A stretch of 32,770 bases of DNA from a virus (IMGVR_UViG_2913192161_000005:1-32770), one strand, 5' to 3'; counted from the stretch's first letter, positions 5,902 through 28,373 are shown. A program made the numbers and translations. The notes: a model not told the origin generated them from the letters alone.

Positions 5902-6353
5902 TGGCAAAAATTCACGAGGTAAAGCTGCACGCAAAATATTTCGACCTTGTGCTGGAAGGAAAGAAACGCGCAGAGTTTCGGAAAAATGACCGTAATTATG
6001 AGCACGGGGACACGTTGATTTTGCATGAATGGGGGCAGGGTGTGTATACGGGGCGAAAGGTTGAAGCCCGGATAACAGATGTTACTGACCTGTCAGACTG
6101 GCTGGAAGATTATGTCTTGCTAAGTATTGAGCTGCTTAATACAGGCGCATATGAGATTGTGAACTGGAAAGAACTTAGTGAGCGTGGTCTGGTATTCAGA
6201 ATTAATCATGAAATTATGCATCAGCTCGGCCTTGCTGTTATGTATGAACCAGAGACGGGGATGTCTGGCGGGGCAATGGTTGCCACGGATGGAGCATGGA
6301 ACTATTCAGATGAACAGATGGAGCGTGCACAGCAAAACGGGTGGCTTGGATAA
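5898..6353 (+). CDS. DUF3850/ASCH-like protein with C-terminal extension, about 151 aa (P2 orf91 position)
   Basis: In-frame ATG at 5898/5901 within ORF 5865..6353, overlapping A stop. N-terminal MAKIHEVKLHAKYFDLVLEGKKRAEFRKNDRNYEHGDTLILHEW fits the DUF3850 (ASCH-like) pattern as I recall it. Confidence 0.65.
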   Translation: MMAKIHEVKLHAKYFDLVLEGKKRAEFRKNDRNYEHGDTLILHEWGQGVYTGRKVEARITDVTDLSDWLEDYVLLSIELLNTGAYEIVNWKELSERGLVFRINHEIMHQLGLAVMYEPETGMSGGAMVATDGAWNYSDEQMERAQQNGWLG

Positions 6354-6630: not shown

Positions 6631-6782
6631 TTGACAGACATATTTTTACTGCGTTGGTGCCGGTTTTTGACGGTTGAAAGGAGTTAGGTTGGAGAGCTAA
6701 CAACTTACAAATATTCAAAAGTAAGCATCCTGTTGCTAACATGAGGTCGATTTTTTATGTGGATGATGCAAAAAGGATAGCT

Positions 6783-7514: not shown

Positions 7515-7528
7515 ACAATATAGTGACA

Positions 7529-7597
7529 AACGCCGCCAGTACTGAAACTTGTTTTCAGTGCTGGCGGGGTTAAACAACGAGCCACGCGAGGCGTTAG
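7529..7597. repeat. 69-bp structured direct repeat, copy 2
   Basis: aacgccgccagtactgaaacttgttttcagtgctggcggggttaaacaacgagccacgcgaggcgttag. Starts 15 bp after the stop of the 6783..7514 gene; hairpin ccgccagtactgaaa-cttg-ttttcagtgctggcgg at 7533..7567. Confidence 0.7.
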
Positions 7598-7621
7598 ACT
7601 AAATTAAATTGAGGCCGAAAA

Positions 7622-8284
7622 ATGCTTTGGAAAGTGATTACATTTGTACTTGTCGGTGTTTGTATTTTTGTTCTCGGCTTATGGCTAGGTTCTATTCAGG
7701 CTGAATGGTCGAAACCAGAGCATAAAGATGCTGTTGCTTATTTAACTATGATAGGCGGATGGGTCTCAGGAATTGCAACATCAATAGCAGTAATTGTTTC
7801 ACTGTATGCGACATATCAATCATCACAAAATAATATTGAAAAATTAGCTTTATTCTATAAGCCTTACCCGAGCGATAATAATGAAAATTACTGTGCAAAT
7901 GTTGAAGTGAAGAATATGCGGAGTGTTTCGGCGCATATACAAGAGTTTTGTTTGGAAATTAGTGGGGTAGATGGTCACATCAATATAAACAAACTAAAAG
8001 CTAATGGGCTACGAATCCCGTATTCTTTATGCCAAATAGGCGAAGTATGGGAGTTTGCTTTTTATCCTGCTGCAAGTCAGAAAAATATGAAGTTCTATCA
8101 TGAACTGAGTGTTAATGGGAGTCCAACTTTCCGAAGTGGTTTCTTTGTGGTTAAAACATCAATGAAGCAATACAAACTAAGGATACCTAAAGTGTTGTTG
8201 AGAATGATGAAAGCTAACTATGAAAAACAAATAAAAATACGGGAGATGTATAAGGAAATGCATGGTAAAGATATGGATATATAA
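7622..8284 (+). CDS. Cargo membrane protein, two N-terminal TM helices plus about 150-aa soluble domain, 220 aa
   Basis: ORF 7622..8284 with GAGG upstream. Hydrophobic stretches VITFVLVGVCIFVLGLWLGSI and VAYLTMIGGWVSGIATSIAVIVSLYA. Strongly AT-rich. Confidence 0.6.
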   Translation: MLWKVITFVLVGVCIFVLGLWLGSIQAEWSKPEHKDAVAYLTMIGGWVSGIATSIAVIVSLYATYQSSQNNIEKLALFYKPYPSDNNENYCANVEVKNMRSVSAHIQEFCLEISGVDGHININKLKANGLRIPYSLCQIGEVWEFAFYPAASQKNMKFYHELSVNGSPTFRSGFFVVKTSMKQYKLRIPKVLLRMMKANYEKQIKIREMYKEMHGKDMDI

Positions 8285-8407
8285 GACGCATTAAATAGCA
8301 TCAAATTGCATGGTTTTTCCTCCCCTGCAGTGAGTGAGCGCCACCAGTGCTGGCGCGTCTCCGACGTGTTTGTGCAACTGCATTAAAACCGACCCATGAA
8401 GCGGGCG

Positions 8408-8426
8408 GGCGAGGCGGGGAAAGCAC
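8408..8426. other. cos cohesive-end site (P2-type 19-nt cos)
   Basis: ggcgaggcggggaaagcac matches the P2/P4 cohesive-end sequence as I recall it. Located in the GC-rich intergenic region immediately beyond the 3' end of Q, as in P2. Confidence 0.65.
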
Positions 8427-8568
8427 TGCGCGCTGGCGGTGGTGCTGATTTTATTTTTTCAGCGTCTGAGCGCGTCGTGACGGCGTTTGGATTGTGCGCC
8501 GGGGCGTTGGTGGGTCTGCGGGATGTTTTGTGCGGTGGTGAGCGTGTGAGGGCGTGATGACGGGGTGT

Positions 8569-8589
8569 AAAAAGCCGCCCGCAGGCGGC
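8569..8589 (-). terminator. Intrinsic terminator downstream of Q
   Basis: Stem gccgcc/ggcggc (8574-8579 and 8584-8589) with loop cgca, followed on the minus strand by a T-run (plus-strand aaaaa at 8569-8573); 6 bp beyond the Q stop. Confidence 0.5.
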
Positions 8590-8594
8590 GATGT

Positions 8595-9629
8595 TCAGCC
8601 GTTGTCAGTGTCCAGTGAGTAGTTTTTAAAGCGGATGACCTCCTGACCGAGCCAGCCGTTTATCTCGCGGATCCTGTCCTGTAACGGGATAAGTTCATTG
8701 CGGACAAAGACCTTTGCCACTTTCTCAATATCACCCAGCGACCCGACGTTCTCCGGCTTGCCGCCCATCAACTGAAAGGGGATGCGGTGCGCGTCCAGCA
8801 GGTCAGCGGCGCTGGCTTTTTTGATATTAAAAAAATCGTCCTTCGTTGCCACTTCACTGAGCGGGATAATTTTAATGCCGTCGGCTTTCCCCTGCGGGGC
8901 ATAGAGAAACAGATTTTTAAAGTTGTTGCGGCCTTTCGACTTAACCATGTTTTCGCGAAGCATTTCGATATCGTTGCGATCCTGCACGGCATCGGTGACG
9001 TACATGATGTATCCGGCATGTGCGCCGTTTTCGTAATACTTGCGGCGGAACAGCGTGGCCGACTCATTCAGCCAGGCAGAGTTAAGGGCGCTGAGATATT
9101 CCGGCAGGCCGTACAGCTCCTGATTAATATCCGGCTCCAGCAGGTGAAACACGGAGCCGGGCGTGAAAGGTGTCGGCTCGTTGAAGGACGGCACCCACCA
9201 GTAAACATCCTCTTCCACACCACGGCGGGTATATTTTGCCGGTGAGGTTTCCAGTCTGATGACCTTACCGGTGGTGCTGTAACGCTTTTCCAGAAACGCA
9301 TTACCGAACACCAGAAAATCCAGCACAAAGCGGCTGAAATCCTGCTGGGAAAGCCACGGGTGCGGGATAAATGTCGAGGCCAGAATATTGCGTTTGACGT
9401 AAATCGGTGAGCTGTGATGCACGGCAGCACGCAGACTTTTTGCCAGACCGGTAAAGCTGACCGGCGGCTCATACCATCTGCCGTTACTGATGCATTCTAC
9501 GTAATCCAGAATGTCACGGCGGTCGAGTACCGGCACCGGCTCGCCAAAGGTGAATGCCTCCATTTTCAGGGCGCTGGCGGTCATTGTTTTTGCCGCAGGT
9601 TGCGGTGTTTTCCCTTTTTTCTTACTCAT
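8595..9629 (-). CDS. Q: Portal protein (P2 gpQ), 344 aa
   Basis: ORF 8595..9629 minus. Size and position match P2 Q (first leftward gene beside cos, upstream stop overlaps as TGATG with P). Confidence 0.92.
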   Translation of the reverse strand: MSKKKGKTPQPAAKTMTASALKMEAFTFGEPVPVLDRRDILDYVECISNGRWYEPPVSFTGLAKSLRAAVHHSSPIYVKRNILASTFIPHPWLSQQDFSRFVLDFLVFGNAFLEKRYSTTGKVIRLETSPAKYTRRGVEEDVYWWVPSFNEPTPFTPGSVFHLLEPDINQELYGLPEYLSALNSAWLNESATLFRRKYYENGAHAGYIMYVTDAVQDRNDIEMLRENMVKSKGRNNFKNLFLYAPQGKADGIKIIPLSEVATKDDFFNIKKASAADLLDAHRIPFQLMGGKPENVGSLGDIEKVAKVFVRNELIPLQDRIREINGWLGQEVIRFKNYSLDTDNG

Positions 9630-15122: not shown

Positions 15123-15404
15123 ATGACAGCAGAAGAAAAAAGCGTCCTGTCGCTTTTCATGATTGGGGTGCTGATTGTTGTCGGCAAGGTGCTTGCCGGT
15201 GGTGAACCCATCACCCCGCGTCTGTTTATCGGGCGCATGTTGCTCGGTGGTTTTGTCTCGATGGTTGCCGGTGTTGTTCTGGTGCAGTTTCCTGACCTGT
15301 CACTGCCTGCGGTGTGCGGCATCGGATCCATGCTGGGTATCGCCGGTTATCAGGTGATTGAGATTGCCATTCAGCGCCGTTTTAAGGGCAGGGGGAAACC
15401 GTAA
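15123..15404 (+). CDS. Y: Holin (P2 gpY), 93 aa
   Basis: ORF 15123..15404; hydrophobic TM segments (LSLFMIGVLIVVGKVLAGG, MLLGGFVSMVAGVVLVQF); precedes endolysin. Confidence 0.85.
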   Translation: MTAEEKSVLSLFMIGVLIVVGKVLAGGEPITPRLFIGRMLLGGFVSMVAGVVLVQFPDLSLPAVCGIGSMLGIAGYQVIEIAIQRRFKGRGKP

Positions 15405-15901
15405 TGCCGGTAATTAACACGCATCAGAATATCGCCGCCTTTCTCGACATGCTGGCCGTGTCCGAAGGGACGGCGAACCATCCGCTGACGAAAAACCGGG
15501 GCTATGACGTGATAGTCACCGGACTGGACGGAAAGCCGGAAATTTTCACCGACTACAGTGACCACCCGTTCGCACATGGTCGACCGGCGAAGGTGTTTAA
15601 CCGTCGCGGTGAAAAATCCACGGCCTCCGGTCGCTATCAGCAGCTTTACCTGTTCTGGCCACACTACCGCAAACAGCTTGCCCTGCCGGATTTCAGTCCG
15701 TTGTCACAGGACAGACTCGCCATTCAGTTGATCCGCGAACGCGGTGCACTGGAGGACATTCGGGCGGGACGCATTGAGCGCGCCATTTCACGCTGTCGCA
15801 ATATCTGGGCGTCCCTGCCGGGTGCCGGTTACGGTCAGCGTGAGCATTCACTGGAAAAACTGGTCACCGTCTGGCGTACCGCCGGCGGTGTACCGGCTTA
15901 A
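15404..15901 (+). CDS. K: Endolysin (P2 gpK), 165 aa
   Basis: ORF 15404..15901, start overlapping Y stop (TAATG); size and position as P2 K. Confidence 0.88.
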   Translation: MPVINTHQNIAAFLDMLAVSEGTANHPLTKNRGYDVIVTGLDGKPEIFTDYSDHPFAHGRPAKVFNRRGEKSTASGRYQQLYLFWPHYRKQLALPDFSPLSQDRLAIQLIRERGALEDIRAGRIERAISRCRNIWASLPGAGYGQREHSLEKLVTVWRTAGGVPA

Positions 15902-15915
15902 ACGGAGTCAACACC

Positions 15916-16341
15916 ATGAAGAAATTATCCCTTTCACTGATGCTGAACGTGTCGCTGGCGCTGATGCTGGCACTGTCCCTGATTTACCCGCAGAGCGTGG
16001 CCGTCAATTTTGTCGCTGCCTGGGCGATTCTGGCGACGGTTATCTGTGTGGTTGCCGGCGGTGTCGGCGTGTATGCCACAGAGTATGTACTGGAACGCTA
16101 CGGGCGGGAGCTGCCGCCGGAATCGCTGGCCGTGAAGATTGTCACGTCGCTGTTTTTGCAGCCGGTGCCGTGGCGCAGACGGGCGGTGGCTCTGGTGGTG
16201 ATGGTGGCGACATTTATCTCGCTGGTCGCTGCCGGGTGGATTTTTACCGCGCTGATTTATCTCGTGGCGTCGCTGTTTTTCCGGCTGATACGTACGGCCT
16301 GCCGTCAGCGTTTTGAGGGGCGGGAACCATGTCAAAGCTGA
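15916..16341 (+). CDS. lysA: LysA, multi-TM lysis timing protein (antiholin-like), 141 aa
   Basis: ORF 15916..16341 with GGAG upstream; several hydrophobic helices; size and position as P2 LysA. Confidence 0.8.
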   Translation: MKKLSLSLMLNVSLALMLALSLIYPQSVAVNFVAAWAILATVICVVAGGVGVYATEYVLERYGRELPPESLAVKIVTSLFLQPVPWRRRAVALVVMVATFISLVAAGWIFTALIYLVASLFFRLIRTACRQRFEGREPCQS

Positions 16342-16754
16342 TGATTGTGCTGGTTGTGTTGTTATCGCTGGCGGTGGCCGGGCTGTTTCTGGTGAAGCAT
16401 GAAAACGCCAGCCTGCGCGCCTCGCTGGACAGGGCGAACAACGTCGCCAGCGGGCAGCAGACGACCATCACCATGCTGAAAAATCAGCTTCATGTTGCCA
16501 TCACCAGGGCAGATAAAAACGAGCTGGCGCAGGTTGCACTGCGTCAGGAGCTGGAGAACACCGCGAAGCGTGAAGCACAGCGCGAGAAAACCATCACGAG
16601 GTTACTGAATGAAAACGAAGATTTCCGCCGCTGGTACGGTGCTGACCTGCCTGATGCTGTGCGCCGGTTGCACCAGCGTCCGGCCTGCACTGACGCCAGT
16701 GATTGTCCACAACGCCTGCCCGAAAGTGAGTCTTTGCCCGATGCCGGGCAGTGA
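16329..16754 (+). CDS. lysB: LysB, inner-membrane spanin (Rz-like), 141 aa
   Basis: ORF 16329..16754; N-terminal TM MSKLMIVLVVLLSLAVAGLFLV followed by a charged, coiled-coil-like region. Confidence 0.8.
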   Translation: MSKLMIVLVVLLSLAVAGLFLVKHENASLRASLDRANNVASGQQTTITMLKNQLHVAITRADKNELAQVALRQELENTAKREAQREKTITRLLNENEDFRRWYGADLPDAVRRLHQRPACTDASDCPQRLPESESLPDAGQ

Positions 16755-16899
16755 CCCGCAGAAGAACGGCGATTTAAGTGCCGATATCCGGCAGCTTGAG
16801 AACGCGCTGGCACGTTGTGCCAGCCAGGTAAAAATGATTAAACACTGTCAGGACGAAAACGATGCTCAAACCCGACAGCCTGCGCAGGGCACTGACTGA
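16609..16899 (+). CDS. lysC: LysC, outer-membrane lipoprotein spanin (Rz1-like), 96 aa; starts inside lysB in another frame
   Basis: ORF 16609..16899 overlapping the 3' end of lysB in a different frame; signal peptide with lipobox (VLTCLMLCAGC). Confidence 0.72.
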   Translation: MKTKISAAGTVLTCLMLCAGCTSVRPALTPVIVHNACPKVSLCPMPGSDPQKNGDLSADIRQLENALARCASQVKMIKHCQDENDAQTRQPAQGTD

Positions 16900-17329
16900 T
16901 GCCGTCACGGTGCTGAAAACCAGCCCCGAGATGCTGCGGATATTCGTGGATAACGGGAGTATTGCCTCCACACTGGCGACGTCGTTGTCATTCGAAAAGC
17001 GTTACACGCTCAATGTCATTGTGACCGACTTTACCGGTGATTTTGACCTGCTCATTGTGCCGGTGCTGGCGTGGCTGCGGGAAAATCAGCCCGACATCAT
17101 GACCACCGACGCAGGCCAGAAAAAGGGCTTCACGTTTTATGCAGACATCAACAATGACAGCAGCTTTGATATCAGCATCAGCCTGATGCTGACCGAGCGT
17201 ACGCTGGTTAGTGAGGTGGGCGGTGCGCTGCATGTGAAGAATATCCCGGAACCTCCGCCGCCGGAGCCGGTCACCCGCCCGATGGAGCTGTATATCAATG
17301 GCGAACTGGTGAGCAAGTGGGATGAATGA
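16862..17329 (+). CDS. R: Tail completion protein R, 155 aa
   Basis: ORF 16862..17329; size and position as P2 R. Confidence 0.88.
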   Translation: MLKPDSLRRALTDAVTVLKTSPEMLRIFVDNGSIASTLATSLSFEKRYTLNVIVTDFTGDFDLLIVPVLAWLRENQPDIMTTDAGQKKGFTFYADINNDSSFDISISLMLTERTLVSEVGGALHVKNIPEPPPPEPVTRPMELYINGELVSKWDE

Positions 17330-17774
17330 GTTTAAGCGTTTTGAAGACCGACTGACCGGACTGATTGAGTCGCTGTCACCGTCAGGGCGTCGGCGACTGA
17401 GTGCCGAACTGGCGAAACGTCTGCGGCAGAGTCAGCAGCGTCGGGTGATAGCACAGAAAGCCCCGGACGGCACACCCTACGCGCCACGCCAGCAGCAGAG
17501 CGCCAGAAAAAAGACCGGTCGCGTTAAGCGAAAAATGTTTGCGAAACTTATCACCAGTCGTTTTTTGCATATCCGCGCCAGCCCGGAGCAGGCATCAATG
17601 GAATTTTACGGCGGGAAGTCACCGAAAATCGCCAGCGTGCATCAGTTCGGTCTGTCGGAAGAAAACAGGAAAGACGGTAAGAAAATTGATTATCCGGCGC
17701 GTCCTCTGCTCGGCTTTACCGGTGAGGATGTGCAGATGATTGAAGAGATTATTCTGGCTCACCTGAATCGCTAG
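17322..17774 (+). CDS. S: Tail completion protein S, 150 aa
   Basis: ORF 17322..17774, overlapping R stop; size and position as P2 S. Confidence 0.88.
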   Translation: MNEFKRFEDRLTGLIESLSPSGRRRLSAELAKRLRQSQQRRVIAQKAPDGTPYAPRQQQSARKKTGRVKRKMFAKLITSRFLHIRASPEQASMEFYGGKSPKIASVHQFGLSEENRKDGKKIDYPARPLLGFTGEDVQMIEEIILAHLNR

Positions 17775-17848
17775 CTTTATTGATCTGAGAATATAAGAAT
17801 GAAATTATTTGATTTAGTATGATTTATTTTGAATCTTTACGTTAATAA

Positions 17849-17875
17849 ATAAAAGGCCAGTTATTGGCCTTTTAT
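17849..17875. terminator. Bidirectional intrinsic terminator between S and the minus-strand cargo gene
   Basis: Hairpin aaaaggcca-gttat-tggcctttt with A-run and T-run on either side; lies between the S stop (17774) and the cargo gene stop codon (17878-17880). Confidence 0.7.
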
Positions 17876-17877
17876 CA

Positions 17878-18951
17878 TTACTTGCCATTTTTCAATGCAT
17901 TGATTAACGATGCTATTTGTTCAATACCATCAAATGTAGATGGTATCTTATCATCGGATAGCATGATGTTCGAAAATACTACGTCTTCAAATTTTGAAAG
18001 AGCTTCTGGGTTGTTTTCCCTTATCTCTGAGGAATAGTCGCTATAACTCTGAATAAACTGACAAAGGCTCTTTCTGAGTTCTATTTGCATAATCTGAGTT
18101 CGTAACGATATGTGATTTATCAGTACAACTCTAAAGTAATACATGAAAATCAATGTGACTGATGCAAAAGGTAGTGCTGACATGAAATATGTGGCAGCAT
18201 TTGTCGTTTCGAGAGTTGGTAATTTATGCATTCCATAGTATATCAGCGGGGATGGGATGATTATAGCTAAGATGATAAGGATTATTCTTGATAGTAAAAT
18301 TTCACGTTCTTTCTTTTTGCCAAGTGAATTAAAGCCTTCAAACAATCCAACAAAATTAAATGCGACCTCATACCCTTTCAATGATTCTTTAATTGACTCT
18401 ATTTTGGTATGTTGTTCCTTTAAAAAGGACTCGCATTTTTCGAAAAATTGACGACCTTCGCTTAAACTATCAATATATTTTTTATATGTGTCCACATTGC
18501 CTGAGCTTAAAACTTCTTTAACCATTGCTAATGGTAGTTCTCTAAGAGAAAAGTCTATCTGTGCTCTGCTTTGTTCATCGAATTCATTATAGTTATACAG
18601 AGCGAAATCCTTGATGGTTTTTAGTGGTGAAAAGAAAGTATCTGTCTCAGGAGAGAGAATACTTGGCTCAATAATAAATCTAAAAAAACAAGTGAATATA
18701 AAATTGATGCTGTTGTTATCCTCTCCCTTTTCTTTTAATAAGTTTGTAAAGGTATTACCAATCCTGACAATGTTGTACTGGGATTTTTTGTCCCAATCTT
18801 CTGGGTTTTCAGAAATGAAGTCTATTGCTTGAGCAATTATTTTGTTTCTGTTTGATTCAAAGGTTGTGCTGGGTGTCAGCGTGTTCAAAAAGACCAGATA
18901 ATCTTTGAACAATTCTTTCATTGTTTTTGATGAGAAAAAGTAAGTGTTCAT
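17878..18951 (-). CDS. Cargo membrane protein at the orf30 locus, about 358 aa (start uncertain: 18951, 18921 or GTG 19047)
   Basis: ORF track 17878..19047 minus; the GTG at 19047 would overlap the V start, so ATG 18951 (MNTYFF...) or 18921 (MKELFK...) is more likely. Soluble N-terminal region of about 250 aa, then two hydrophobic helices (ILLSRIILIILAIIIPSPLIYYG, AATYFMSALPFASVTLIFMYYFRVVLI), then a C-terminal domain of about 80 aa. AT-rich, opposite strand to flanking late genes. Confidence 0.7.
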   Translation of the reverse strand: MNTYFFSSKTMKELFKDYLVFLNTLTPSTTFESNRNKIIAQAIDFISENPEDWDKKSQYNIVRIGNTFTNLLKEKGEDNNSINFIFTCFFRFIIEPSILSPETDTFFSPLKTIKDFALYNYNEFDEQSRAQIDFSLRELPLAMVKEVLSSGNVDTYKKYIDSLSEGRQFFEKCESFLKEQHTKIESIKESLKGYEVAFNFVGLFEGFNSLGKKKEREILLSRIILIILAIIIPSPLIYYGMHKLPTLETTNAATYFMSALPFASVTLIFMYYFRVVLINHISLRTQIMQIELRKSLCQFIQSYSDYSSEIRENNPEALSKFEDVVFSNIMLSDDKIPSTFDGIEQIASLINALKNGK

Positions 18952-19037
18952 TATGGATTTTGTTGTCCCTTGTTGTTCTGTGCACCAGAAATCGTTGCGT
19001 GATTTACTTCGGGATTGTACAGAATCATTATTCTCGA

Positions 19038-19667
19038 ATGAATACACAATACAATGAAATACTTCGCTTTATACGCAATATGATTCGCACCGGCATTATC
19101 GTCGAAACCGACCTTAACGCCGGTCGCTGCCGTGTGCAGACCGGCGGCATGTGCACCGACTGGCTTCAGTGGCTGACCCATCGCGCCGGACGTTCGCGCA
19201 CATGGTGGGCACCTTCCGTGGGGGAACAGGTGTTGATTCTGTCCGTGGGCGGTGAACTCGACACGGCGTTTGTTCTGCCGGGGATTTATTCCGGCGATAA
19301 TCCCGCGCCGTCTGCGTCGGCGGATGCCCTGCATATCCGTTTCCCTGACGGGGCGGTGATTGAGTATGAACCCGAAACCAGTGCACTTACGGTAAGCGGA
19401 ATTAAAACGGCCAGCGTGACGGCTTCTGATTCTGTTACCGCCACGGTGCCTGTGGTCATGGTGAAAGCATCAACCCGCGTCACCCTGGACACACCGGAGG
19501 TGGTCTGCACCAACAGGCTGATTACCGGCACGCTGGAAGTGCAGAAGGGCGGGACGATGCGCGGCAACATTGAACACACCGGCGGTGAACTCTCATCAAA
19601 CGGTAAGGTACTGCATACCCATAAACACCCCGGCGACAGCGGCGGCACAACCGGGAGTCCTCTATGA
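19038..19667 (+). CDS. V: Baseplate spike/assembly protein V, 209 aa
   Basis: ATG at 19038 within ORF 18921..19667; size close to P2 V; first gene of the V-W-J-I-H-G block. Confidence 0.88.
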   Translation: MNTQYNEILRFIRNMIRTGIIVETDLNAGRCRVQTGGMCTDWLQWLTHRAGRSRTWWAPSVGEQVLILSVGGELDTAFVLPGIYSGDNPAPSASADALHIRFPDGAVIEYEPETSALTVSGIKTASVTASDSVTATVPVVMVKASTRVTLDTPEVVCTNRLITGTLEVQKGGTMRGNIEHTGGELSSNGKVLHTHKHPGDSGGTTGSPL

Positions 19668-20011
19668 CAGCGCGTTATCTCGGAATGAATCGCAGTGATG
19701 GCCAGACTGTCACTGACCTTGAGCATATCAGCCAGAGTATCGGCGATATCCTGCGCACACCGGTCGGCTCACGGGTGATGCGTCGTGATTACGGCTCGTT
19801 GCTGGCATCAATGATTGACCAGCCGCAGACCCCGGCGCTTGAGTTGCAGATTAAGGTCGCCTGTTACATGGCGGTGCTGAAATGGGAACCCCGAGTCACC
19901 CTGTCATCCGTCACCACTGAGCGCAGTTTTGACGGGCGAATGACGGTCACGTTAACCGGCCAGCACAACGACACCGGCCAGCCACTTTCGTTAACCATCC
20001 CTGTGAGTTGA
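19664..20011 (+). CDS. W: Baseplate protein W (gp25-like), 115 aa
   Basis: ORF 19664..20011 overlapping V stop (ATGA); size as P2 W. Confidence 0.88.
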   Translation: MTARYLGMNRSDGQTVTDLEHISQSIGDILRTPVGSRVMRRDYGSLLASMIDQPQTPALELQIKVACYMAVLKWEPRVTLSSVTTERSFDGRMTVTLTGQHNDTGQPLSLTIPVS

Positions 20012-20015
20012 AACC

Positions 20016-20924
20016 ATGCCGATTATCGACCTGAACCAGCTACCCGCACCGGATGTGGTCGAGGAGCTGGACTTTGAAACCATTCTTGCCGAACGCAAGG
20101 CGACACTGATTTCCCTTTACCCGGAAGACCAGCAGGAGGCGGTCGCCCGTACCCTGACGCTGGAATCTGAGCCTCTCGTCAAACTGCTGGAGGAAAATGC
20201 TTATCGTGAGCTTATCTGGCGTCAGCGTGTGAATGAGGCTGCACGGGCGGTGATGCTGGCCTGTGCAGCCGGTAATGACCTTGATGTGATTGGTGCCAAT
20301 TACAACACCACGCGCCTGATTATCACCCCGGCAGATGATTCGACCATCCCGCCGACACCGGCAGTGATGGAATCTGACACCGATTATCGTCTGCGTATTC
20401 AGCAGGCGTTTGAAGGTTTAAGCGTCGCCGGGTCGGTGGGTGCCTATCAGTATCATGGCCGCAGTGCCGACGGGCGTGTCGCGGATATCTCTGTCACCAG
20501 TCCGTCTCCGGCCTGCGTCACCATCTCTGTGCTGTCACGTGAAAATAACGGCGTCGCATCCGAAGACCTGCTGGCTGTGGTGCGTAACGCCCTTAATGGC
20601 GAGGACGTCAGGCCGGTGGCCGACCGCGTGACCGTGCAGTCTGCCGCCATCGTTGAATACCAGATAAACGCCACGCTTTACCTTTACCCTGGTCCCGAAA
20701 GCGAACCCATCCGCGCTGCCGCCGTGAAAAAACTAGAAGCGTACATCACGGCACAGCACCGGCTGGGGCGCGACATCCGTCTGTCTGCCATTTATGCCGC
20801 TTTGCATGTGGAAGGCGTGCAGCGTGTCGAGCTGGCCGCACCACTGGCCGACATTGTGCTCAACAGTACGCAGGCGTCTTTCTGTACCGAATACAGCGTC
20901 GTGACCGGAGGCTCGGATGAGTGA
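20016..20924 (+). CDS. J: Baseplate protein J, 302 aa
   Basis: ORF 20016..20924; size and position as P2 J. Confidence 0.9.
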   Translation: MPIIDLNQLPAPDVVEELDFETILAERKATLISLYPEDQQEAVARTLTLESEPLVKLLEENAYRELIWRQRVNEAARAVMLACAAGNDLDVIGANYNTTRLIITPADDSTIPPTPAVMESDTDYRLRIQQAFEGLSVAGSVGAYQYHGRSADGRVADISVTSPSPACVTISVLSRENNGVASEDLLAVVRNALNGEDVRPVADRVTVQSAAIVEYQINATLYLYPGPESEPIRAAAVKKLEAYITAQHRLGRDIRLSAIYAALHVEGVQRVELAAPLADIVLNSTQASFCTEYSVVTGGSDE

Positions 20925-21447
20925 TTCGCGACTGCTGCCGACCGGCTCATCACCGCTTGAAGTTGCCGCCGCAAAAGCCTGTGCGGAAATTGAAAAAACA
21001 CCGGTCAGTATTCGTGAGCTGTGGAACCCGGACTCCTGTCCGGCAAATCTGCTGCCGTGGCTGGCGTGGGCGTTTTCGGTCGACAGGTGGGATGAAAAGT
21101 GGCCGGAAGCGACAAAACGCGCCGTTATCCGCGATGCGTATTTCATCCACTGTCATAAAGGCACTATCGGCGCAATCCGGCGTGTGGTGGAGCCGCTCGG
21201 CTATCTCATTAACGTAAAGGAATGGTGGGAGACAAACGACCCGCCCGGAACCTTCCGCCTTGATATCGGCGTACTGGAAAGCGGCATCACGGAGGAGATG
21301 TATCTGGAAATGGAACGGCTGATTGCCGATGCCAAACCCGCAAGTCGCCACCTTATCGGTCTGAACATTATCCAGGACATTCCCGGCTATCTGTATACAG
21401 GCGGTGTGGTCTGTGATGGTGATGTTATTACTGTTTATCCCGGATAA
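20917..21447 (+). CDS. I: Baseplate/tail protein I, 176 aa
   Basis: ORF 20917..21447 overlapping J; size and position as P2 I. Confidence 0.9.
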   Translation: MSDSRLLPTGSSPLEVAAAKACAEIEKTPVSIRELWNPDSCPANLLPWLAWAFSVDRWDEKWPEATKRAVIRDAYFIHCHKGTIGAIRRVVEPLGYLINVKEWWETNDPPGTFRLDIGVLESGITEEMYLEMERLIADAKPASRHLIGLNIIQDIPGYLYTGGVVCDGDVITVYPG

Positions 21448-21457
21448 GTGAGAAACA

Positions 21458-24082
21458 ATGAGCACGAAATTTAAAACCGTTATCACTACTGCCGGAGCCG
21501 CAAAGCTGGCAGCCGCCACTGTCCCCGGCGGGAAAAAAGTAAACCTGTCTGCAATGGCCGTGGGTGACGGTAATGGCAAATTGCCGGTGCCGGATGCCGG
21601 TCAGACGAAACTGGTGCATGAGGTCTGGCGTCATGCTCTGAATAAAGTCAGCGTGGATAATAAGAATAAAAACTATATCGTGGCTGAACTGGTTGTACCG
21701 CCCGAAGTGGGCGGCTTCTGGATGCGTGAGCTTGGTCTGTATGACGATGCCGGAACACTGATTGCGGTATCCAACATGGCAGAAAGCTATAAACCAGAAC
21801 TGGCTGAAGGCTCCGGACGTGCGCAGACCTGCCGCATGGTTATTATTCTCAGCAATGTGGCGTCCGTTGAGCTGAGTATTGATGCCAGCACAGTGATGGC
21901 GACGCAGGATTATGTCGATGACAAAATCGCAGAGCATGAGCAGTCCCGCCGCCATCCTGACGCCACGCTGACAGAAAAAGGTTTTACTCAGTTAAGCAGT
22001 GCAACAAACAGCACCAGTGAAAAGCTGGCGGCAACGCCAAAGGCAGTAAAAGCAGCCTATGACAATGCTGAGAAACGTCTGCAGAAAGACCAGAACGGTG
22101 GCGATATTCCAGATAAGGGCGCTTTTCTGGACAATATTGGCGTTACCAGCCTGACGTTTATGAAACACAATGGAATGATTCCAACCACTGACAATCTTGA
22201 CTCCTATGGCCCAGAAGAAAAATATCTTGGAACGTGGTCATGTCCGTCACAATCCACTGCAAAACCAGAGTCTGGTTACCCTGAAGATAAAGGCAATGGG
22301 GTTCTGGAAGTATTCAATGCTGGTCGCTTTCACTGCACACAACGCTACACCACCCGAACCGGTAATATTTACATTCGGATGCTTGATGCAGAATGGAACC
22401 CTGTCAGTCCTGTATGGAGTGCATGGAGAGTTATTACAAGCGGGACTCGCCCATTAAGCACGTCAATTGACCTGAATTCTTTAGGTGGTGCGGAACACCT
22501 GGGAATATGGCGCAATAGCAGTACATCAATAGCCTCATTTGACCGTCATTTCCCGGAGGAAGGGAGTTTTGGGCAGGGTATTCTGGAAGTCTTTGAAGGC
22601 GGTCTGTATGGGAGGATGCAACGTTACACCACCCGTAGTGGGACTATGTACATTCGCGGACTGACTGCCTCATGGGATGCAGAAAATCCACAATGGGAGG
22701 ACTGGATTGCTGTTGGGTATCAGTCCACGGGATGGACTTATTCAGGGGATCTTGATGACCTTTTAAAGCCTGGTATTTATAGCGTTACGAAACAGGCCAC
22801 AAATGCACCTGTCACCGACTCTAAAGATCTTGCTGTTGGCTCAATAGTTGAAGTGAAAAAACGTTGTGATATTGAATCGTATATCCAGACATACACGACT
22901 GTTTCAGCAACGGATGCCTATAAAAACCGGACATTTCAGCGAACCCGCGCCAGCGGTGAAACTGACTGGGGGGAATGGGCGGAAGTATACAACTCAAAAT
23001 CATTACTCACTAAATTAGGTGTCGGCGGTGTTACCGACAGGTTATCCAGTCTGGACTGGCAGACCTACGACTTTATACCGGGCAGCATGATAACTGTCAG
23101 GCTTTCAGATATGACCAATATTCCCGATGGGATGGAATGGGGCGTCATTGATACTAACCTGATAAATATCACTGTTGGCCCCAGTGAAGGCGGAGGTGTC
23201 GCCCGTTCAATGCAGGTATGGCGCAGCACTTCAAACAAAACCAACTATCGTTTTTTTACAGTCCGCTTATATGGAAATCCTGGGGAGCGTAGCTTCAATA
23301 TTCGTCGGCTACCAATTATCGACGAAGCCCAGACATGGGAGGCAAAACAGACATTCAGTGCAGGCCTTTCTGGTGAACTGTCCGGCAATGCGGCTACAGC
23401 AACAAAGCTGAAAACGGCAAGGACAATTAACGGCGTAAAATTTGACGGCTCGGCAAATATTGAAGCGTTTCCGCCTGGTGTTCCGCTGCCGTGGCCATCA
23501 GATACACCACCTGCGGGCTATGCAATTATGCAGGGGCAGACGTTTGATAAGGCAGCATATCCGAAACTGGCTATAGCCTATCCTTCTGGTGTTATTCCAG
23601 ATATGCGCGGCTGGACAATCAAGGGCAAACCCGCCAGTGGGCGTGCCGTATTGTCACAGGAACAGGACGGGATTAAATCGCATACTCACAGCGCCAGTGC
23701 GTCAAATACGGATTTGGGAACGAAAACAACCAGTTCATTTGATTACGGCACGAAGACAGTCAGTACGTTTAACTACGGAACAAAAACCACTAATACCACA
23801 GGTAACCATACACATACCATTTACAGAGGGAATGCCAATACTAATGGTGAAACCGGTAAAACAGGCTTTGACAACCCATCGTTTAATGGCACATCAGGAG
23901 CTGCCGGGAATCATGCCCACACGGTAGATATTGGAGCACATAACCATACTGTTGGTATTGGTGCACATTCACACACGGTTGCTATTGGCTCACACGGGCA
24001 CTCTATTACCGTTAATGCTACAGGTAATACCGAAAACACCGTCAAAAACATCGCATTTAACTATATTGTGAGGCTTGCATAA
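21458..24082 (+). CDS. H: Tail fibre protein H, 874 aa (P2-like N-terminus, divergent distal part)
   Basis: ORF 21458..24082. N-terminal roughly 200 aa ([25 protein letters not shown]...[43 protein letters not shown]) matches my recollection of P2 H. C-terminus has His-x-His-rich repeats ([36 protein letters not shown]) typical of fibre tips. Longer than the size I recall for P2 H. Confidence 0.9.
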
Positions 24083-24660
24083 TGGCTTTCAGAATGAGTG
24101 CAGAAGCACAAACTATCCGCGTTTTCAATTTACTTGATGGAACCAATGAATTTATTGGCGAAAGTGATGCATATATTCCGCCGCATACAGGTCTGCCTGC
24201 AAACAGTACAGATATTACACCACCTGATATTCCGGCGGGTTTTGCTGCCGTTTTCAATGCAGATGAAATGAAATGGGAACTGATGGAAGACCATCGCGGA
24301 AAGACTGTCTATGAAACGAAAACGGGAGCAGCCATTTATATTTCTGAACTTGGCGCATTACCTCCAGACGTGACAGCCATTTCCCCGGAGGGGGATTATC
24401 AGAAATGGAACGGCAATGCGTGGGTGAATGATGAGAATGCAGAGCGTGATGCGCTTGTCAGAGCGGCTGACTCTCAGAAGAAAGAGCTGATTGCATATGC
24501 AGGTGAAATTATTGCCACGCTGCAGGATGCTGTCGATTTAGATATGGCTACCGAGGAAGAAAAGTTAAGCCTGACACACTGGAAAAAATACCGTGTGTTA
24601 CTGAATCGCGTTCAGCCGGAAGATGCTCCGGATATAGAATGGCCGGAAATGCCGCAATAA
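24082..24660 (+). CDS. G: Tail fibre assembly chaperone G, 192 aa
   Basis: ORF 24082..24660 starting at the H stop (TAATG); position as P2 G. Confidence 0.85.
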
Positions 24661-24759
24661 ATTGTAGAAGCTCTGATGTGAGTTTATACATCTATGGCAC
24701 AGAGTAAAAAATAATCTGACAGTTCGCTCTGTGCCAAAAGCAGAATTTACCTCTTACGA

Positions 24760-25866
24760 TTATACACCATGTAAAAAACGGTTATTTCTTCGTCGCTCTC
24801 CCTCGCTGCTAACTTCATTAAAAAATCCTCTGCTAACATCATCAGAAACATCAATAATGTGTTTTAACGCAGAAAGGGTCTCAAATTGCTTGCTCGTTAA
24901 GGCTGACTTATCAATCGCTAATTGCTCGTCATTTACATCTTTTAAGTAAGAAAAATACTTACCCAAAAAGCCTGCGATAACATCAGATAGTTGGACAGCC
25001 TCTGAGTCGTGGGATTTAACGAATTCATGATTCTGTATTGGTATGCCATTTTCAGTTAACGGGAAGTTTTTAACTTCATCTTGAATGCTTTTTTCTTCAT
25101 CAAATATGTGAATGGAATTTTTAAATAGATACAAGTTTCTTAAATAGAATACCATAAAGCTATCGATCAGTTCTCGACCATGAAATCCCGATATGAACGG
25201 TAGTTCTTCGATTTTTAGAGATTCTTTAACCAAATTTTCGAGTGCGAGTGCTCGAAAATCTGGTAGCATACAACTGTGCATGCATGTAAAATCGATAAGC
25301 CAGAGGCAAAACTCATAAACTTTTTCTTCTGGAATATCGGGGTAGTTAAATTTATGTAGAGCATTCAGGAAAACATCGGGATTGCTATTGGCAAGCTCAT
25401 AAAAATCGCTCTTAAATGACATGTGGTTCATGATATAAAAAGGATTGTGTAGCTCTCCAATAATAGAATCAACAATGTCAATAATAGACCAGTATGTGAC
25501 ATTAAGATTAAAATAATGGATATAGAAATTGTTTTCGATAAGCCAGTTTAGAATAATTAAAATCTTATCAGATTTAAGCATGTCCAAAAAACTACCCTTA
25601 GCAATATGTCTGAGTTTTAACTCATGGGCACTTTTTTGAAGATTAAGCTTTTGAAATAGGGTTGAATAATCGCTGTCAGTGCTTAACCCTTTGTGTAGTA
25701 TTCCTGCAAGGATGAAATTATCCGCCTTTACAACATTGAAACCAGAATCTTTTAAATATAGTTTTCGAATGTTATTCGTTTCATCATAATAAAACGTATA
25801 GACTTCATCAGTATTTTGAAGACCATTATGCTTGATAAGTAACTCTCTAAGTTCATTGACATCCAT
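24760..25866 (-). CDS. Cargo protein at the Z/fun locus, 368 aa, with DUF3800-like motifs (tentative)
   Basis: ORF 24760..25866 minus, ATG at 25866. AT-rich; opposite strand to G and FI. N-terminal YTFYYDETNN and C-terminal VQLSDVIAGFLG resemble the D-E-S and Q..D motif pair I associate with DUF3800; unverified. Confidence 0.75.
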   Translation of the reverse strand: MDVNELRELLIKHNGLQNTDEVYTFYYDETNNIRKLYLKDSGFNVVKADNFILAGILHKGLSTDSDYSTLFQKLNLQKSAHELKLRHIAKGSFLDMLKSDKILIILNWLIENNFYIHYFNLNVTYWSIIDIVDSIIGELHNPFYIMNHMSFKSDFYELANSNPDVFLNALHKFNYPDIPEEKVYEFCLWLIDFTCMHSCMLPDFRALALENLVKESLKIEELPFISGFHGRELIDSFMVFYLRNLYLFKNSIHIFDEEKSIQDEVKNFPLTENGIPIQNHEFVKSHDSEAVQLSDVIAGFLGKYFSYLKDVNDEQLAIDKSALTSKQFETLSALKHIIDVSDDVSRGFFNEVSSEGERRRNNRFLHGV

Positions 25867-26036
25867 TTTATTCCCCTAATGCAATTCTCAAACTAAGATT
25901 AATTTCAGTAATCATCATATAAAGTTAGCCTAACAAACATATTAATGAATGTCTGCTATTCGCTCAAGGCAGACTGTCAGATTTAATAGCGTTTTGATTA
26001 TGTAACTTGTCAGCTGGAAGCTAAGTGAGAACAAAT

Positions 26037-26071
26037 AAAGAAAAGGCGGGCTGATTGCCCGTCTTTTCTTT
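26037..26071. terminator. Bidirectional intrinsic terminator / insulator between the Z/fun cargo island and FI
   Basis: Long hairpin aaagaaaaggcgggc-tgatt-gcccgtcttttcttt (about 15 bp of stem with one G-U), with A/T runs on both sides. Confidence 0.6.
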
Positions 26072-26167
26072 ATCTGTTGTTTCATTCACTGACCAGCCAG
26101 GTCAAATAGCGTCTCATGCACTGCCCAACAGAAAATAGTTGTACCCATTAACCACGGAGTTAAACGG

Positions 26168-27358
26168 ATGAGTGACTATCATCATGGCGTGCAGGTGCTG
26201 GAGATTAACGACGGCACCCGCGTCATTTCCACTGTATCCACTGCCATTGTCGGCATGGTCTGCACGGCCAGCGATGCGGATGCGGAAACCTTCCCCCTCA
26301 ATAAACCGGTGCTGATTACCAATGTGCAGAGCGCAATTGCAAAGGCCGGTAAAAAAGGCACGCTGGCGGCGTCGCTGCAGGCCATCGCCGACCAGTCAAA
26401 ACCGGTCACCGTTGTCGTGCGCGTGGAAGACGGCACCGGCGACGACGAAGAAACGAAACTCGCGCAGACCGTTTCCAATATCATCGGCACCACTGACGAA
26501 AACGGTCAGTACACCGGACTGAAAGCCCTGCTGGCGGCGGAGTCGGTAACCGGTGTTAAACCGCGCATTCTCGGCGTGCCGGGACTGGACACCAAAGAGG
26601 TGGCTGTTGCACTGGCATCAGTCTGTCAGAAGCTGCGCGCTTTCGGGTATATCAGCGCATGGGACTGTAAAACCATTTCCGAGGTGAAAGCCTATCGCCA
26701 GAATTTCAGCCAGCGTGAGCTGATGGTCATCTGGCCGGATTTCCTCGCATGGGATACGGTCACCAGTACCACCGCCACCGCGTATGCCACCGCCCGTGCA
26801 CTGGGCCTGCGCGCTAAAATTGACCAGGAGCAGGGCTGGCATAAAACGCTGTCCAACGTCGGGGTGAACGGTGTTACCGGCATCAGCGCATCTGTATTCT
26901 GGGATTTGCAGGAGTCCGGCACCGATGCTGACCTGCTTAACGAGTCAGGCGTCACAACGCTGATTCGTCGTGACGGTTTCCGCTTCTGGGGTAACCGTAC
27001 CTGCTCTGATGACCCGCTGTTCCTCTTTGAAAACTACACCCGCACCGCGCAGGTGCTGGCCGACACGATGGCTGAGGCGCACATGTGGGCGGTGGACAAG
27101 CCCATCACCGCAACGCTGATTCGCGACATCGTTGATGGCATCAATGCCAAATTCCGAGAGCTGAAAACAAACGGCTATATCGTGGATGCGACCTGCTGGT
27201 TCAGTGAAGAATCCAACGATGCGGAAACCCTCAAGGCCGGAAAACTGTATATCGACTACGACTATACCCCGGTGCCTCCTCTTGAAAACCTGACCCTGCG
27301 CCAGCGTATTACTGATAAATACCTGGCAAATCTGGTCACCTCGGTTAACAGCAATTAA
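26168..27358 (+). CDS. FI: Tail sheath protein FI, 396 aa
   Basis: ORF 26168..27358; size and position as P2 FI. Confidence 0.93.
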   Translation: MSDYHHGVQVLEINDGTRVISTVSTAIVGMVCTASDADAETFPLNKPVLITNVQSAIAKAGKKGTLAASLQAIADQSKPVTVVVRVEDGTGDDEETKLAQTVSNIIGTTDENGQYTGLKALLAAESVTGVKPRILGVPGLDTKEVAVALASVCQKLRAFGYISAWDCKTISEVKAYRQNFSQRELMVIWPDFLAWDTVTSTTATAYATARALGLRAKIDQEQGWHKTLSNVGVNGVTGISASVFWDLQESGTDADLLNESGVTTLIRRDGFRFWGNRTCSDDPLFLFENYTRTAQVLADTMAEAHMWAVDKPITATLIRDIVDGINAKFRELKTNGYIVDATCWFSEESNDAETLKAGKLYIDYDYTPVPPLENLTLRQRITDKYLANLVTSVNSN

Positions 27359-27370
27359 GGAGCCTGACCG

Positions 27371-27889
27371 ATGGCAATGCCGCGCAAACTCAAATACATG
27401 AATGTCTTTCTGAACGGCTACAGCTATCAGGGCGTTGCAAAGTCCGTCACGCTGCCAAAACTGACCCGTAAGCTCGAAAACTATCGCGGTGCGGGGATGA
27501 ACGGCAGCGCACCGGTAGACCTCGGCCTTGATGATGATGCGCTGTCAATGGAGTGGTCGCTCGGGGGCTTCCCGGATTCGGTTATCTGGGAGCTTTACGC
27601 TGCAACCAGTGCTGATGCCGTACCGATTCGTTTTGCTGGTTCTTACCAGCGCGACGATACCGGCGAAACGGTGGCCGTCGAAGTGGTCATGCGTGGGCGT
27701 CAGAAAGAAGTCGATACCGGAGAGGGTAAACAGGGAGAGGATACCGAATCGAAACTCCCGGTGATTTGTACTTATTTCCGGCTGACGATGGACGGTAAGG
27801 AGCTGGTCGAAATCGACACCATCAACATGATTGAGAAGGTGAACGGCGTCGACCGGCTGGAGCAACACCGCCGAAATATCGGCCTGTGA
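27371..27889 (+). CDS. FII: Tail tube protein FII, 172 aa
   Basis: ORF 27371..27889; size and position as P2 FII. Confidence 0.93.
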   Translation: MAMPRKLKYMNVFLNGYSYQGVAKSVTLPKLTRKLENYRGAGMNGSAPVDLGLDDDALSMEWSLGGFPDSVIWELYAATSADAVPIRFAGSYQRDDTGETVAVEVVMRGRQKEVDTGEGKQGEDTESKLPVICTYFRLTMDGKELVEIDTINMIEKVNGVDRLEQHRRNIGL

Positions 27890-27945
27890 TTTTCATCCGG
27901 TCAGCCTGGCTGACCGGTTAACCCTGATTCAGAAGTGAGAAAACC

Positions 27946-28221
27946 ATGAACAAAGAAAATGTGATTACCCTGGACAATCCGGTCAAGCGTGGTGAGCAGG
28001 TTATCGAACAGGTCACGCTGATGAAACCCAATGCCGGGACGCTGCGCGGTGTCAGCCTGGCTGCGGTCGCGAACTCCGAAGTCGATGCACTGATTAAGGT
28101 GCTGCCGCGCATGACGGCACCGATGCTGACCGAGCAGGAAGTCGCCGCGCTGGAACTGCCTGACCTTGTGGCGCTGGTCGGTAAGGTGGTCGGTTTTTTG
28201 TCGCCGAACTCGGTGCAGTGA
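27946..28221 (+). CDS. E: Tail assembly chaperone E, 91 aa
   Basis: ORF 27946..28221; size and position as P2 E; contains the slippery heptamer near its 3' end. Confidence 0.85.
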   Translation: MNKENVITLDNPVKRGEQVIEQVTLMKPNAGTLRGVSLAAVANSEVDALIKVLPRMTAPMLTEQEVAALELPDLVALVGKVVGFLSPNSVQ

Positions 28222-28373
28222 CGTTTCCGAAAAATCTCTCGGTCGATGACCTGATGGCGGATGTGGCAGTGATATTTCACTGGCCGCCATCAGAACTGTA
28301 TCCCATGAGCCTGGCCGAACTCATCACATGGCGCGAAAAGGCGCTCCGGCGAAGCGGAAACACGAATGAGTAA
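27946..28373 (+). CDS. E': E+E' fusion product made by programmed -1 ribosomal frameshift at TTTTTTG (28194-28200), 142 aa
   Basis: Slippery T TTT TTG at 28194..28200 inside E. Reading the -1 frame from 28200 continues without a stop to TAA at 28371-28373, overlapping the T start. The predicted 142 aa matches the P2 E+E' length I recall. Confidence 0.7.

Follow-up and report, generated by a model that had tools for sequence, protein, structure and literature searches.

Between the tail completion gene S and the baseplate spike gene V of a P2-like (Peduovirus) prophage lies an AT-rich gene on the strand opposite to the late operons, and the question raised by this locus is what the gene is and what it does there. 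The prophage is complete and constitutes the window, a term used here for the whole stretch of viral DNA that was analyzed (IMGVR_UViG_2913192161_000005, 32,770 nucleotides). Its genes are arranged in the order int, C, cox, A, Q, P, O, N, M, L, the lysis genes, R, S, V, W, J, I, H, G, FI, FII, T, U, and D. The S-V region, also called orf30, has already been named among three variable P2 regions with foreign genes (PMC3091744), and a 2026 survey placed defense loci 'within the tail genes' with no further detail (PMC13586616). Two studies searching P2 hot spots for defense systems covered only the A-Q and Z/fun slots (PMC9122126, PMC9519451). Those two hot spots gave many new anti-phage systems, and the S-V slot is unmined. 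An earlier interpretation made from the DNA alone (the sequence-only reading) suggested that the gene is a horizontally acquired moron expressed independently of late transcription, and a candidate for lysogenic conversion or exclusion.

Results

The S-V interval contains a foreign module

The S-V interval was 1,263 bp long and contained a single long minus-strand ORF, hereafter the cargo gene (Table 1). The ORF calls and base composition agreed with the sequence-only reading, in which S ended at 17774, V started at 19038, and an AT-rich minus-strand gene interrupted the late genes. The GC content was 0.335 in the cargo CDS and 0.331 in the whole S-V interval, compared with 0.54 in S and 0.58 in V, and the GC3 was 0.34 in the cargo gene compared with 0.58-0.63 in the flanking S and V. 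In a megablast comparison with 76 genomes of P2-like phages, the alignment was limited to the S and V flanks. In the C-terminal residues of S (…AHLNR), the penultimate codon was the one difference from P2 and Wphi, and the left edge of the module was therefore placed at the S stop codon. The spacer next to S showed no similarity to the S-V intergenic DNA of P2 or Wphi. On the other side, the first ~13 codons of V (to ~19078) diverged from P2 and Wphi, indicating that the exchanged module extends into V. In Wphi, S and V are only 66 bp apart and the slot is empty; the slot is likewise empty in the viable phage fiAA91-ss. An Rfam scan of the window detected no RNA family. The other two P2 hot spots of the same prophage were also occupied by AT-rich cargo, and one of these matched the PADLOC candidate PDC-S51.

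Table 1. Coordinates of the cargo gene, its protein segments and the surrounding elements in the window
Feature	Position	Strand	Remarks
Gene S (tail completion), left flank	17322-17774	+	
AT-rich spacer, part of the cargo module	17775-17848		
Bidirectional intrinsic terminator hairpin (predicted)	17849-17875		stem AAAAGGCC/GGCCTTTT, loop AGTTA
Cargo CDS, 357 aa	17878-18951	-	phrog_9373 member
Residues 281-357, cytoplasmic C-terminal segment	17881-18111	-	most conserved part
Residues 219-280, transmembrane hairpin	18112-18297	-	from hydropathy
Residues 151-218, long stalk helix	18298-18501	-	ends in conserved AFNFVGL(Y/F)xGF just before the membrane
Residues 1-150, cytoplasmic seven-helix bundle	18502-18951	-	AF2, pLDDT 92.7 when modelled alone
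Divergent control region, 86 bp	18952-19037		holds the late promoter pV
Candidate leftward σ70 promoter	19014-19042	-	-35 TTCATT (19042-19037), -10 TACAAT (19019-19014)
Gene V (baseplate spike), right flank	19038-19667	+	

Start codon and selection on the cargo gene

The longest minus-strand frame runs from a GTG at 19047 to 17878 (389 aa), and the frame from the ATG at 18951 encodes 357 aa. Almost all homologues were 352-360 aa in length and began with MxxxFF, in which F6 was invariant in 55 diverse sequences. Based on the family length of ~355 aa and these N-termini, the ATG at 18951 was assigned as the start codon. The GTG at 19047, which overlaps V, was rejected because the family N-termini align at the ATG at 18951 with F6 invariant, and an internal ATG at 18921 was rejected on the same evidence. 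The sequence-only reading had likewise dismissed the GTG and had expected the start within 18921-19037; its length of about 358 aa was one residue too long. RefSeq annotates 1,074 nt for most E. coli copies, and the cargo protein is identical to WP_130258228.1 of Escherichia sp. E10V10. The dN/dS values among the E. coli alleles were 0.05-0.29, with dS reaching 0.23-0.37. It is therefore apparent that the cargo gene is a real, translated gene under purifying selection. In these alleles, no domain showed the dN/dS above 1 that would mark positive selection, and all values were below 0.3.

Terminator and control region

The hairpin downstream of the cargo gene is perfect and lies 2 bases beyond its stop codon. 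Its folding energy was -14.3 kcal/mol (z = -3.4), and T-runs are present on both strands, which supports the strong bidirectional terminator described at this position in the sequence-only reading. A terminator is annotated at the equivalent place in the P2 record, and a generic terminator scan did not pick up the hairpin. The hairpin is predicted to end the late O-operon transcript on the plus strand and the cargo transcript on the minus strand.

In the divergent control region, an Ogr-type dyad region (TGTTGT…, ~18961-18985) is located beside the cargo start codon, and related phages have a strict TGT-N12-ACA at positions -64 to -73. In the window, as in most cargo-bearing relatives, exactly 6 nt separate the -10 sequence of pV (CATTAT, 19026-19031) from the V ATG, an arrangement that fits the P2 annotation, in which transcription starts at the first base of V. 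A weak Shine-Dalgarno sequence for the cargo gene (AAGGGA) was found at 18966-18971. At the IMG/VR loci with both start codons assignable, the distance from the cargo start to the V start was 79-147 bp, mostly 84-100 bp (50 distinct intergenic sequences). Because the cargo start is ~10 bp from the dyad, any promoter of the cargo gene has to overlap with pV or with the 5' end of V. The -35 sequence of the candidate σ70 promoter overlaps the V start codon, and an alternative candidate -10 sequence (AATAAT, 19032-19027) mirrors that of pV. These σ70-like candidates are weak, and the promoter-scan count was no higher than in shuffled sequences. If either candidate is real, the cargo promoter and pV would not be occupied together, and the cargo gene would be on in lysogeny, while pV is silent. 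The sequence-only reading had confined the cargo start, the cargo promoter, and pV to 18921-19037; this held for the start and pV, whereas the likeliest cargo promoter extends to 19042 with its -35 sequence.

Architecture and conservation of the cargo protein

Hydropathy analysis placed two transmembrane segments at residues ~219-241 (TM1) and ~252-280 (TM2), separated by a loop of ~10 residues (~241-251). Clusters of Lys and Arg precede TM1 and follow TM2, which under the positive-inside rule predicts a cytoplasmic location for both termini (N-in/C-in), with only ~10 residues facing the periplasm. No signal peptide was found in the protein. The two closely spaced hydrophobic helices and the C-terminal domain of about 80 aa (here ~77-84 aa) were recovered as in the sequence-only reading, and the soluble N-terminal region was also present, but at ~215 aa instead of about 250 aa. 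In the full-length model, the protein consists of a cytoplasmic bundle, a stalk, and a helical hairpin with a hydrophobic tip. One long helix (residues 152-231) continues into the first hydrophobic segment, and a second (residues 252-310) starts with the second hydrophobic segment; the last 28 residues of the tail (330-357) were modelled with low confidence. The C-terminal segment carries the motifs QIELRKSLCQFIQSY…KFExxxFSNI…K-IPSTFDG, and QIELRKSLCxFIQxY, KFExxxFS, and PSTFDG are invariant motifs within the tail.

The frequency of the commonest residue in the family was 0.42 in the N-domain, 0.39 in the stalk, and 0.22 in the outer loop, which is the least conserved segment, and it was 0.69 in the AFNFVGL(Y/F)xGF motif, 0.66 in TM2, 0.74 in the post-membrane helix, and 0.67 in the tail. 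TM2 was far more conserved than TM1, and P261, Y271, and F273 were invariant. When the window allele was compared with the commonest E. coli allele, 25 of the 27 substitutions fell within residues 1-219. The dN/dS values of the N-domain (0.14-0.29) were three- to fivefold higher than that of the membrane/C-terminal half (0.05), and residues 1-150 were the fastest-evolving part. We propose that the N-terminal bundle is a candidate sensor or specificity domain, and that the C-terminal segment is a candidate effector or assembly module.

Homology and fold searches

The remote-homology and structure-based searches by which the sequence-only reading was to be checked yielded a single match, phrog_9373. 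The HMM of this family matched the protein over its full length (E = 1.2e-126, residues 20-356 on profile positions 32-387 of 388). Since phrog_9373 has no functional annotation, membership gives no function. In PADLOC-DB v2.0.0, no family matched the window protein at E <= 1 or a Yersinia homologue at E <= 0.01, and a Klebsiella homologue gave a single chance-level match to BnzB (E = 0.0056). NCBIfam gave no match to the window protein, and Pfam gave nothing above noise. No Pfam family recurred among 55 family members, which showed scattered chance matches (DUF3810, OmpH, BrkB), and neither SLATT nor any other Pfam 2TM effector domain was found at E <= 1 in the window protein or these 55 members. 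A profile search of PDB sequences detected no relative. Foldseek of the full model against the PDB returned nothing at E < 0.001, with axonemal coiled coils as the only hits at E > 0.04. The absence of a recognizable catalytic motif, recorded in the sequence-only reading, still stands after the Pfam, NCBIfam, PADLOC, and PDB searches. The possibility that the cargo protein is a homologue of P2 Orf30 (AAD03281.1) was rejected (best BLASTP E = 1.2). A literature search that included the DefensePredictor supplements found no mention of the protein, phrog_9373, or its motifs.

Distribution of the family and occupancy of the slot

An exhaustive profile search retrieved 926 clusters (50% identity), of which 675 had E <= 1e-30. 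Nearly all of the best 150 of these 926 clusters were 340-400 aa in length with one architecture, and the few shorter ones look truncated. The carriers among species representatives belonged to Gammaproteobacteria, Betaproteobacteria, Campylobacterota, Nitrospirales, Desulfobacterota, and Bacteroidota, together with a Petrotogaceae MAG. The spread among species was very patchy and crossed phyla, with many non-phage genomes and many free-living environmental bacteria among the carriers.

Only 5 of the 80 loci from species representatives were in the P2 S-V slot, and the remaining 75 had no adjoining S or V. These non-P2 loci had ordinary neighbors, such as ABC transporters, two-component systems, and his and lpt genes. 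No conserved partner gene was found across the 80 loci. In a rough ORF-based survey of neighbors, made with no control set, there was no defense-island signal: the 110 immediate and 144 further neighbors were mostly housekeeping genes, and defense or mobile genes at the non-P2 loci amounted to about two type I R-M S subunits, one KAP NTPase, and a few integrase/IS200 genes. A position next to hisB is syntenic in five or six genera of Pasteurellaceae, and in several Pasteurellaceae the gene directly follows hisB and is itself followed by a hisH-like gene; in Neisseria a homologue lies near lptA.

Among phages, 73 of 80 IMG/VR homologue loci were in the S-V slot of P2-like phages, and in 72 of these 73 the gene faced against V; the homologue on one distant P2-like contig (L159) was co-oriented with the late genes. 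At the IMG/VR loci, the cargo proteins were 28-45% identical to the window protein, compared with 54-82% for V and 65-83% for J. The gene was present in 60 of 5,426 complete E. coli genomes, in every case in the S-V slot of a P2 prophage, one of which is a decayed remnant. In addition, 213 Klebsiella phage-plasmids (~110 kb) carry a distant branch of the family, with 26-31% identity over the C-terminal 60-70%. In pJN2-26, the single annotated phage-plasmid record examined, the homologue is on the strand opposite to the adjacent replication genes. These results indicate that the family has long-term fidelity to the S-V slot in P2-like phages, with the Klebsiella phage-plasmids as its second home.

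The contents of the slot were surveyed in 60 evenly spaced records out of 1,677 matching E. coli records. In these sampled P2 prophages, the slot was empty in ~29, held an orf30-type gene in ~15, and held this gene in 4; the remainder included a 359-aa RelA/SpoT-domain protein (1), two small forward ORFs (2), and an IS21 element (1). The RelA/SpoT-domain protein is encoded in the same orientation as the cargo gene and matches the PADLOC candidate PDC-S33. We presume it to resemble the fused toxSAS defense proteins of the CapRel type.

Discussion

The identification of the cargo gene as a moron, that is, a self-contained accessory gene, in the variable S-V ('orf30') slot is structurally well supported. 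The foreign GC content, the opposite strand, the gene's own terminator, and a slot that is often empty confirm the horizontally acquired cargo of the sequence-only reading, and the occurrence of the family in many non-phage genomes supports the acquisition further. The cargo gene is dispensable for P2-type virions.

As a candidate function, we tentatively favor, at somewhat less than even confidence, a lysogen-expressed moron whose product is a one-protein inner-membrane anti-phage sensor-effector. In such a scheme, leftward transcription would start from a weak constitutive promoter overlapping the silent late promoter pV, and the protein would form a helical hairpin in the membrane, its N- and C-termini both remaining cytoplasmic. 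The variable N-terminal bundle would recognize a component of an infecting phage, and the signal would travel along the stalk helix. The invariant TM2 and the C-terminal module might then reorganize or oligomerize, so that the membrane is compromised or a membrane-linked step is blocked and the infection is aborted. We infer the promoter, the expression in the lysogen, the anti-phage activity, and the membrane-damaging effector step from the following features. These are the anatomy of a moron, the dispensability for the virion, the fidelity to a swap-prone slot, the toxSAS-like gene found elsewhere in the same slot, the presence of the gene in two lineages of temperate phages, its patchy spread across phyla, its stand-alone organization, and the combination of a variable N-terminal part with a conserved C-terminal part. 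It is also known that P2 hot spots are rich in defense genes and that unknown genes from hot spots of this kind, in tests made in the P4 satellite, often validate (PMC9122126, PMC9519451, PMC13586616). On the other hand, the lack of homology to defense families, the ordinary chromosomal neighbors, the fixed place next to hisB, the absence of any domain with dN/dS above 1, and promoter candidates no better than chance count against a sensor-effector. The fixed hisB-adjacent place in several Pasteurellaceae genera looks more like that of a stable cell gene.

The serious rival is a non-immune inner-membrane function, such as envelope or membrane homeostasis or the scaffolding of a cytoplasmic partner, by which the gene would aid the physiology of the lysogen. 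We regard this as unlikely, yet it draws real weight from the chromosomal copies, which sit amid housekeeping genes with no defense or prophage signature and show synteny with hisB in Pasteurellaceae and proximity to lptA in Neisseria. The extreme conservation of the cytoplasmic C-terminal segment across phyla suggests a conserved cellular partner, and purifying selection throughout the protein is in keeping with such a role. A cellular function of this kind is harder to reconcile with the confinement of the gene to P2 prophages in E. coli, the very patchy species distribution, the AT-rich foreign DNA and moron anatomy, and the carriage by two unrelated temperate-phage lineages.

Superinfection exclusion, in which the membrane protein would block genome entry, including that of P2 relatives, without killing the cell, appears improbable. 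A prophage membrane protein encoded where P2 has the membrane protein Orf30, with a long-standing association with P2-like phages, would suit such a role. However, the tiny periplasmic loop is the only part that faces the periplasm and is unconserved, which makes exclusion less likely, and all conserved parts are cytoplasmic. A cytoplasmic domain of 215 aa is also unlike the known small exclusion proteins. The many homologues outside phages also argue against it.

There is little to commend a lytic-cycle helper of the phage, acting in lysis timing or membrane remodelling and not expressed in the lysogen. The lysis cassette (K, lysA, lysB, and lysC; ~15404-16900) precedes the cargo gene by a few genes, the cargo product is a membrane hairpin, and the L159 homologue is co-oriented with the late genes, but the gene opposes the late operons at all the other S-V loci from IMG/VR. 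In addition, the closeness of the dyad to the cargo start rules out an Ogr-type promoter for the gene, which is absent from most P2-like phages and present in non-phage genomes. Hardly credible is a released α-helical pore-forming toxin or virulence factor of the ClyA/AhlC/IpaB kind acting in classical lysogenic conversion: the fold matches were dominated by generic coiled coils (SMC, prefoldin, tektin) with nothing significant in Foldseek, the lack of a signal peptide and the positive-inside pattern fit a resident inner-membrane hairpin, and many carriers of the family are free-living environmental bacteria. A virion or assembly role like that of a conserved P2 gene, the outcome that the sequence-only reading had set against its own proposal, has its position between tail genes as its sole support and was rejected, because P2 Orf30 is unrelated and is itself annotated as nonessential in GenBank, the slot is empty in the viable phages Wphi and fiAA91-ss, the strand and composition are foreign to the late genes, and most species-representative homologues are found away from S and V.

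The dominant occupant of the S-V slot is thus a family of ~355-aa membrane proteins with at least 900 clusters at 50% identity in many phyla, which has been kept in the slot while diverging to ~30% identity. If the cargo gene is an immune gene, it would make the S-V slot the third defense locus of P2 and contribute a widespread one-protein system, and the split into a variable sensor and a conserved effector, if true, would be convenient for work on the mechanism. If it is not, the question is why two temperate-phage lineages retain a cellular membrane protein. Either way, the gene offers an inexpensive single-gene test of a large uncharacterized family.

Comparison with known systems

P2 orf30 resembles the cargo gene in its place in the S-V slot, its leftward orientation, the layout of terminator, gene, and pV, its AT-richness, and its predicted membrane protein. 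Apart from the lack of sequence similarity noted above, the two differ in that P2 Orf30 has 261 aa and three separate hydrophobic segments, whereas the cargo protein has 357 aa and one hairpin. The cargo of the other two P2 hot spots, old/tin (A-Q) and Z/fun, is similarly prophage-borne, AT-rich, self-contained, and inserted in a fixed gap between conserved genes, and it is swapped between otherwise near-identical phages (PMC9122126, PMC9519451). Unlike the validated A-Q and Z/fun cargo, the gene described here is in the third slot and has no homology to the PADLOC models, which include those systems.

By analogy, the proposed sensor-effector may be likened to abortive infection systems with transmembrane effectors, which combine a cytoplasmic sensing part with a small helical membrane module and show the same asymmetry between a variable sensor and a conserved effector. 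Examples of such systems are the 2TM/1TM partners of TIR in phage AC1, the TM effectors of retrons and CBASS, SLATT-type 2TM domains, and lactococcal AbiZ. The cargo protein differs from them in having no sequence match in Pfam or PADLOC and no nucleotide-signalling partner or enzyme, and its conserved module has a cytoplasmic tail of ~80 residues with its own invariant motif.

A far-reaching extension, which we put forward as a long shot, is that the family could be a large set of one-protein membrane 'executioners', in which the N-terminal bundle would be the bacterial counterpart of CC, HeLo, and MLKL domains. The gene would then be carried by P2-like phages and Klebsiella phage-plasmids as the signature cargo of a third, so far overlooked immune slot, with a -10 sequence shared with pV, on in lysogeny and off when the phage is lytic. 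The four-helix-bundle cell-death domains concerned are the plant CC/CC-R domains of MLA13 and NRG1, MLKL, and HeLo-like domains, with which the N-terminal domain might share its fold.

The V promoter and the 5' end of V

In the window (region 19026-19040), a CATTAT hexamer was found exactly 6 nt upstream of the start codon of V, and the same motif occurs at the same 6-nt spacing in most of the cargo-bearing P2-like phages (intergenic regions of the viral loci L091-L170). This position implies that V would be translated from a leaderless mRNA. In addition, codons 1 to approximately 13 of V in the window are unlike those of P2 and Wphi. The variants whose S-V slot holds P2 orf30 or a RelA/SpoT gene have a V N-terminus of the P2/Wphi type, which is common to both. 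The module that is exchanged therefore seems to extend over the late promoter pV and the 5' end of V.

Other genes in the S-V slot

The RelA/SpoT-domain protein from E. coli FDAARGOS_1284 matched the PADLOC candidate PDC-S33 (E = 3e-17), and its gene resembles fused defence genes of the toxSAS type. Its location indicates that defence-type cargo can occupy the S-V slot. Some P2-like contigs carry additional genes between S and the family member, namely, a 222-aa multi-transmembrane protein, a pair resembling HigB/HigA that was identified solely by eye, and a 210- to 221-aa protein to which no family was assigned; a single slot can therefore accommodate several cargos. In a distant P2-like contig, L159 (IMG/VR 2693429658_000002), the homologue in the S-V slot faces the same way as S and V; none of the other examples in this slot, 73 in total with L159, does so.

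Coordinates of cargo genes, homologues, and related features
Feature	Locus	Coordinates	Strand	Remarks
RelA/SpoT-domain protein, S-V slot	L086 (E. coli FDAARGOS_1284)	2056-3135	-	359 aa; orientation as window cargo
Additional S-V slot genes	L121/L162	7192-7860
Additional S-V slot genes	L141/L149	about 7100-8870
Additional S-V slot genes	L132/L145/L148/L160
Decayed P2 remnant	L005 (E. coli NCTC9041)	16500-28281
Klebsiella phage-plasmid homologue	L003	3572-4738		388 aa
Z/fun-slot gene between G and FI	window	24760-25866	-	368 aa; AT-rich, 34% GC
Old/tin-slot ORF, A-Q gap	window	6741-7514	+	257 aa; AT-rich, 38% GC
Old/tin-slot ORF, A-Q gap	window	7622-8284	+	220 aa; AT-rich, 38% GC
ORF overlapping 3' end of A	window	5865-6353	+	162 aa; ASCH/DUF3850 and DUF7415 domains

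Alleles, remnants, and homologues of the cargo gene

Between the window cargo gene (17878-18951) and the L089 allele, dS was 0.10 in the N-domain and 0.24-0.26 elsewhere, and this unevenness suggests intragenic recombination between cargo alleles. In the decayed P2 remnant of E. coli NCTC9041, all genes that would lie between cox and S are gone, S is shortened at the 5' end, and I and FI are broken; the remnant retains an intact cargo gene (99.4% identical).

In several Pasteurellaceae genera (L064, L071, L078, L080, L083, and L085), the family member directly follows hisB on the same strand with a hisH-like gene downstream, and is apparently inserted inside the histidine operon. In Klebsiella, 213 phage-plasmids, each about 110 kb in size, carry a distant homologue (26-31% identity over the C-terminal 60-70%; plasmid hits H116-H138). 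In pJN2-26, the one annotated record examined, it adjoins primase, helicase, and ligase genes on the opposite strand.

Other cargo in the window prophage

The product of the Z/fun-slot gene matched Pfam DUF3800 as well as the PADLOC candidate PDC-S51 (E = 7e-107), and this gene is a second putative defence cargo. Because neither of the two old/tin-slot ORFs matched PADLOC or Pfam, the pair was regarded as cargo of no recognised family; the slot in which it resides is the best-known, classical defence hot spot of P2.
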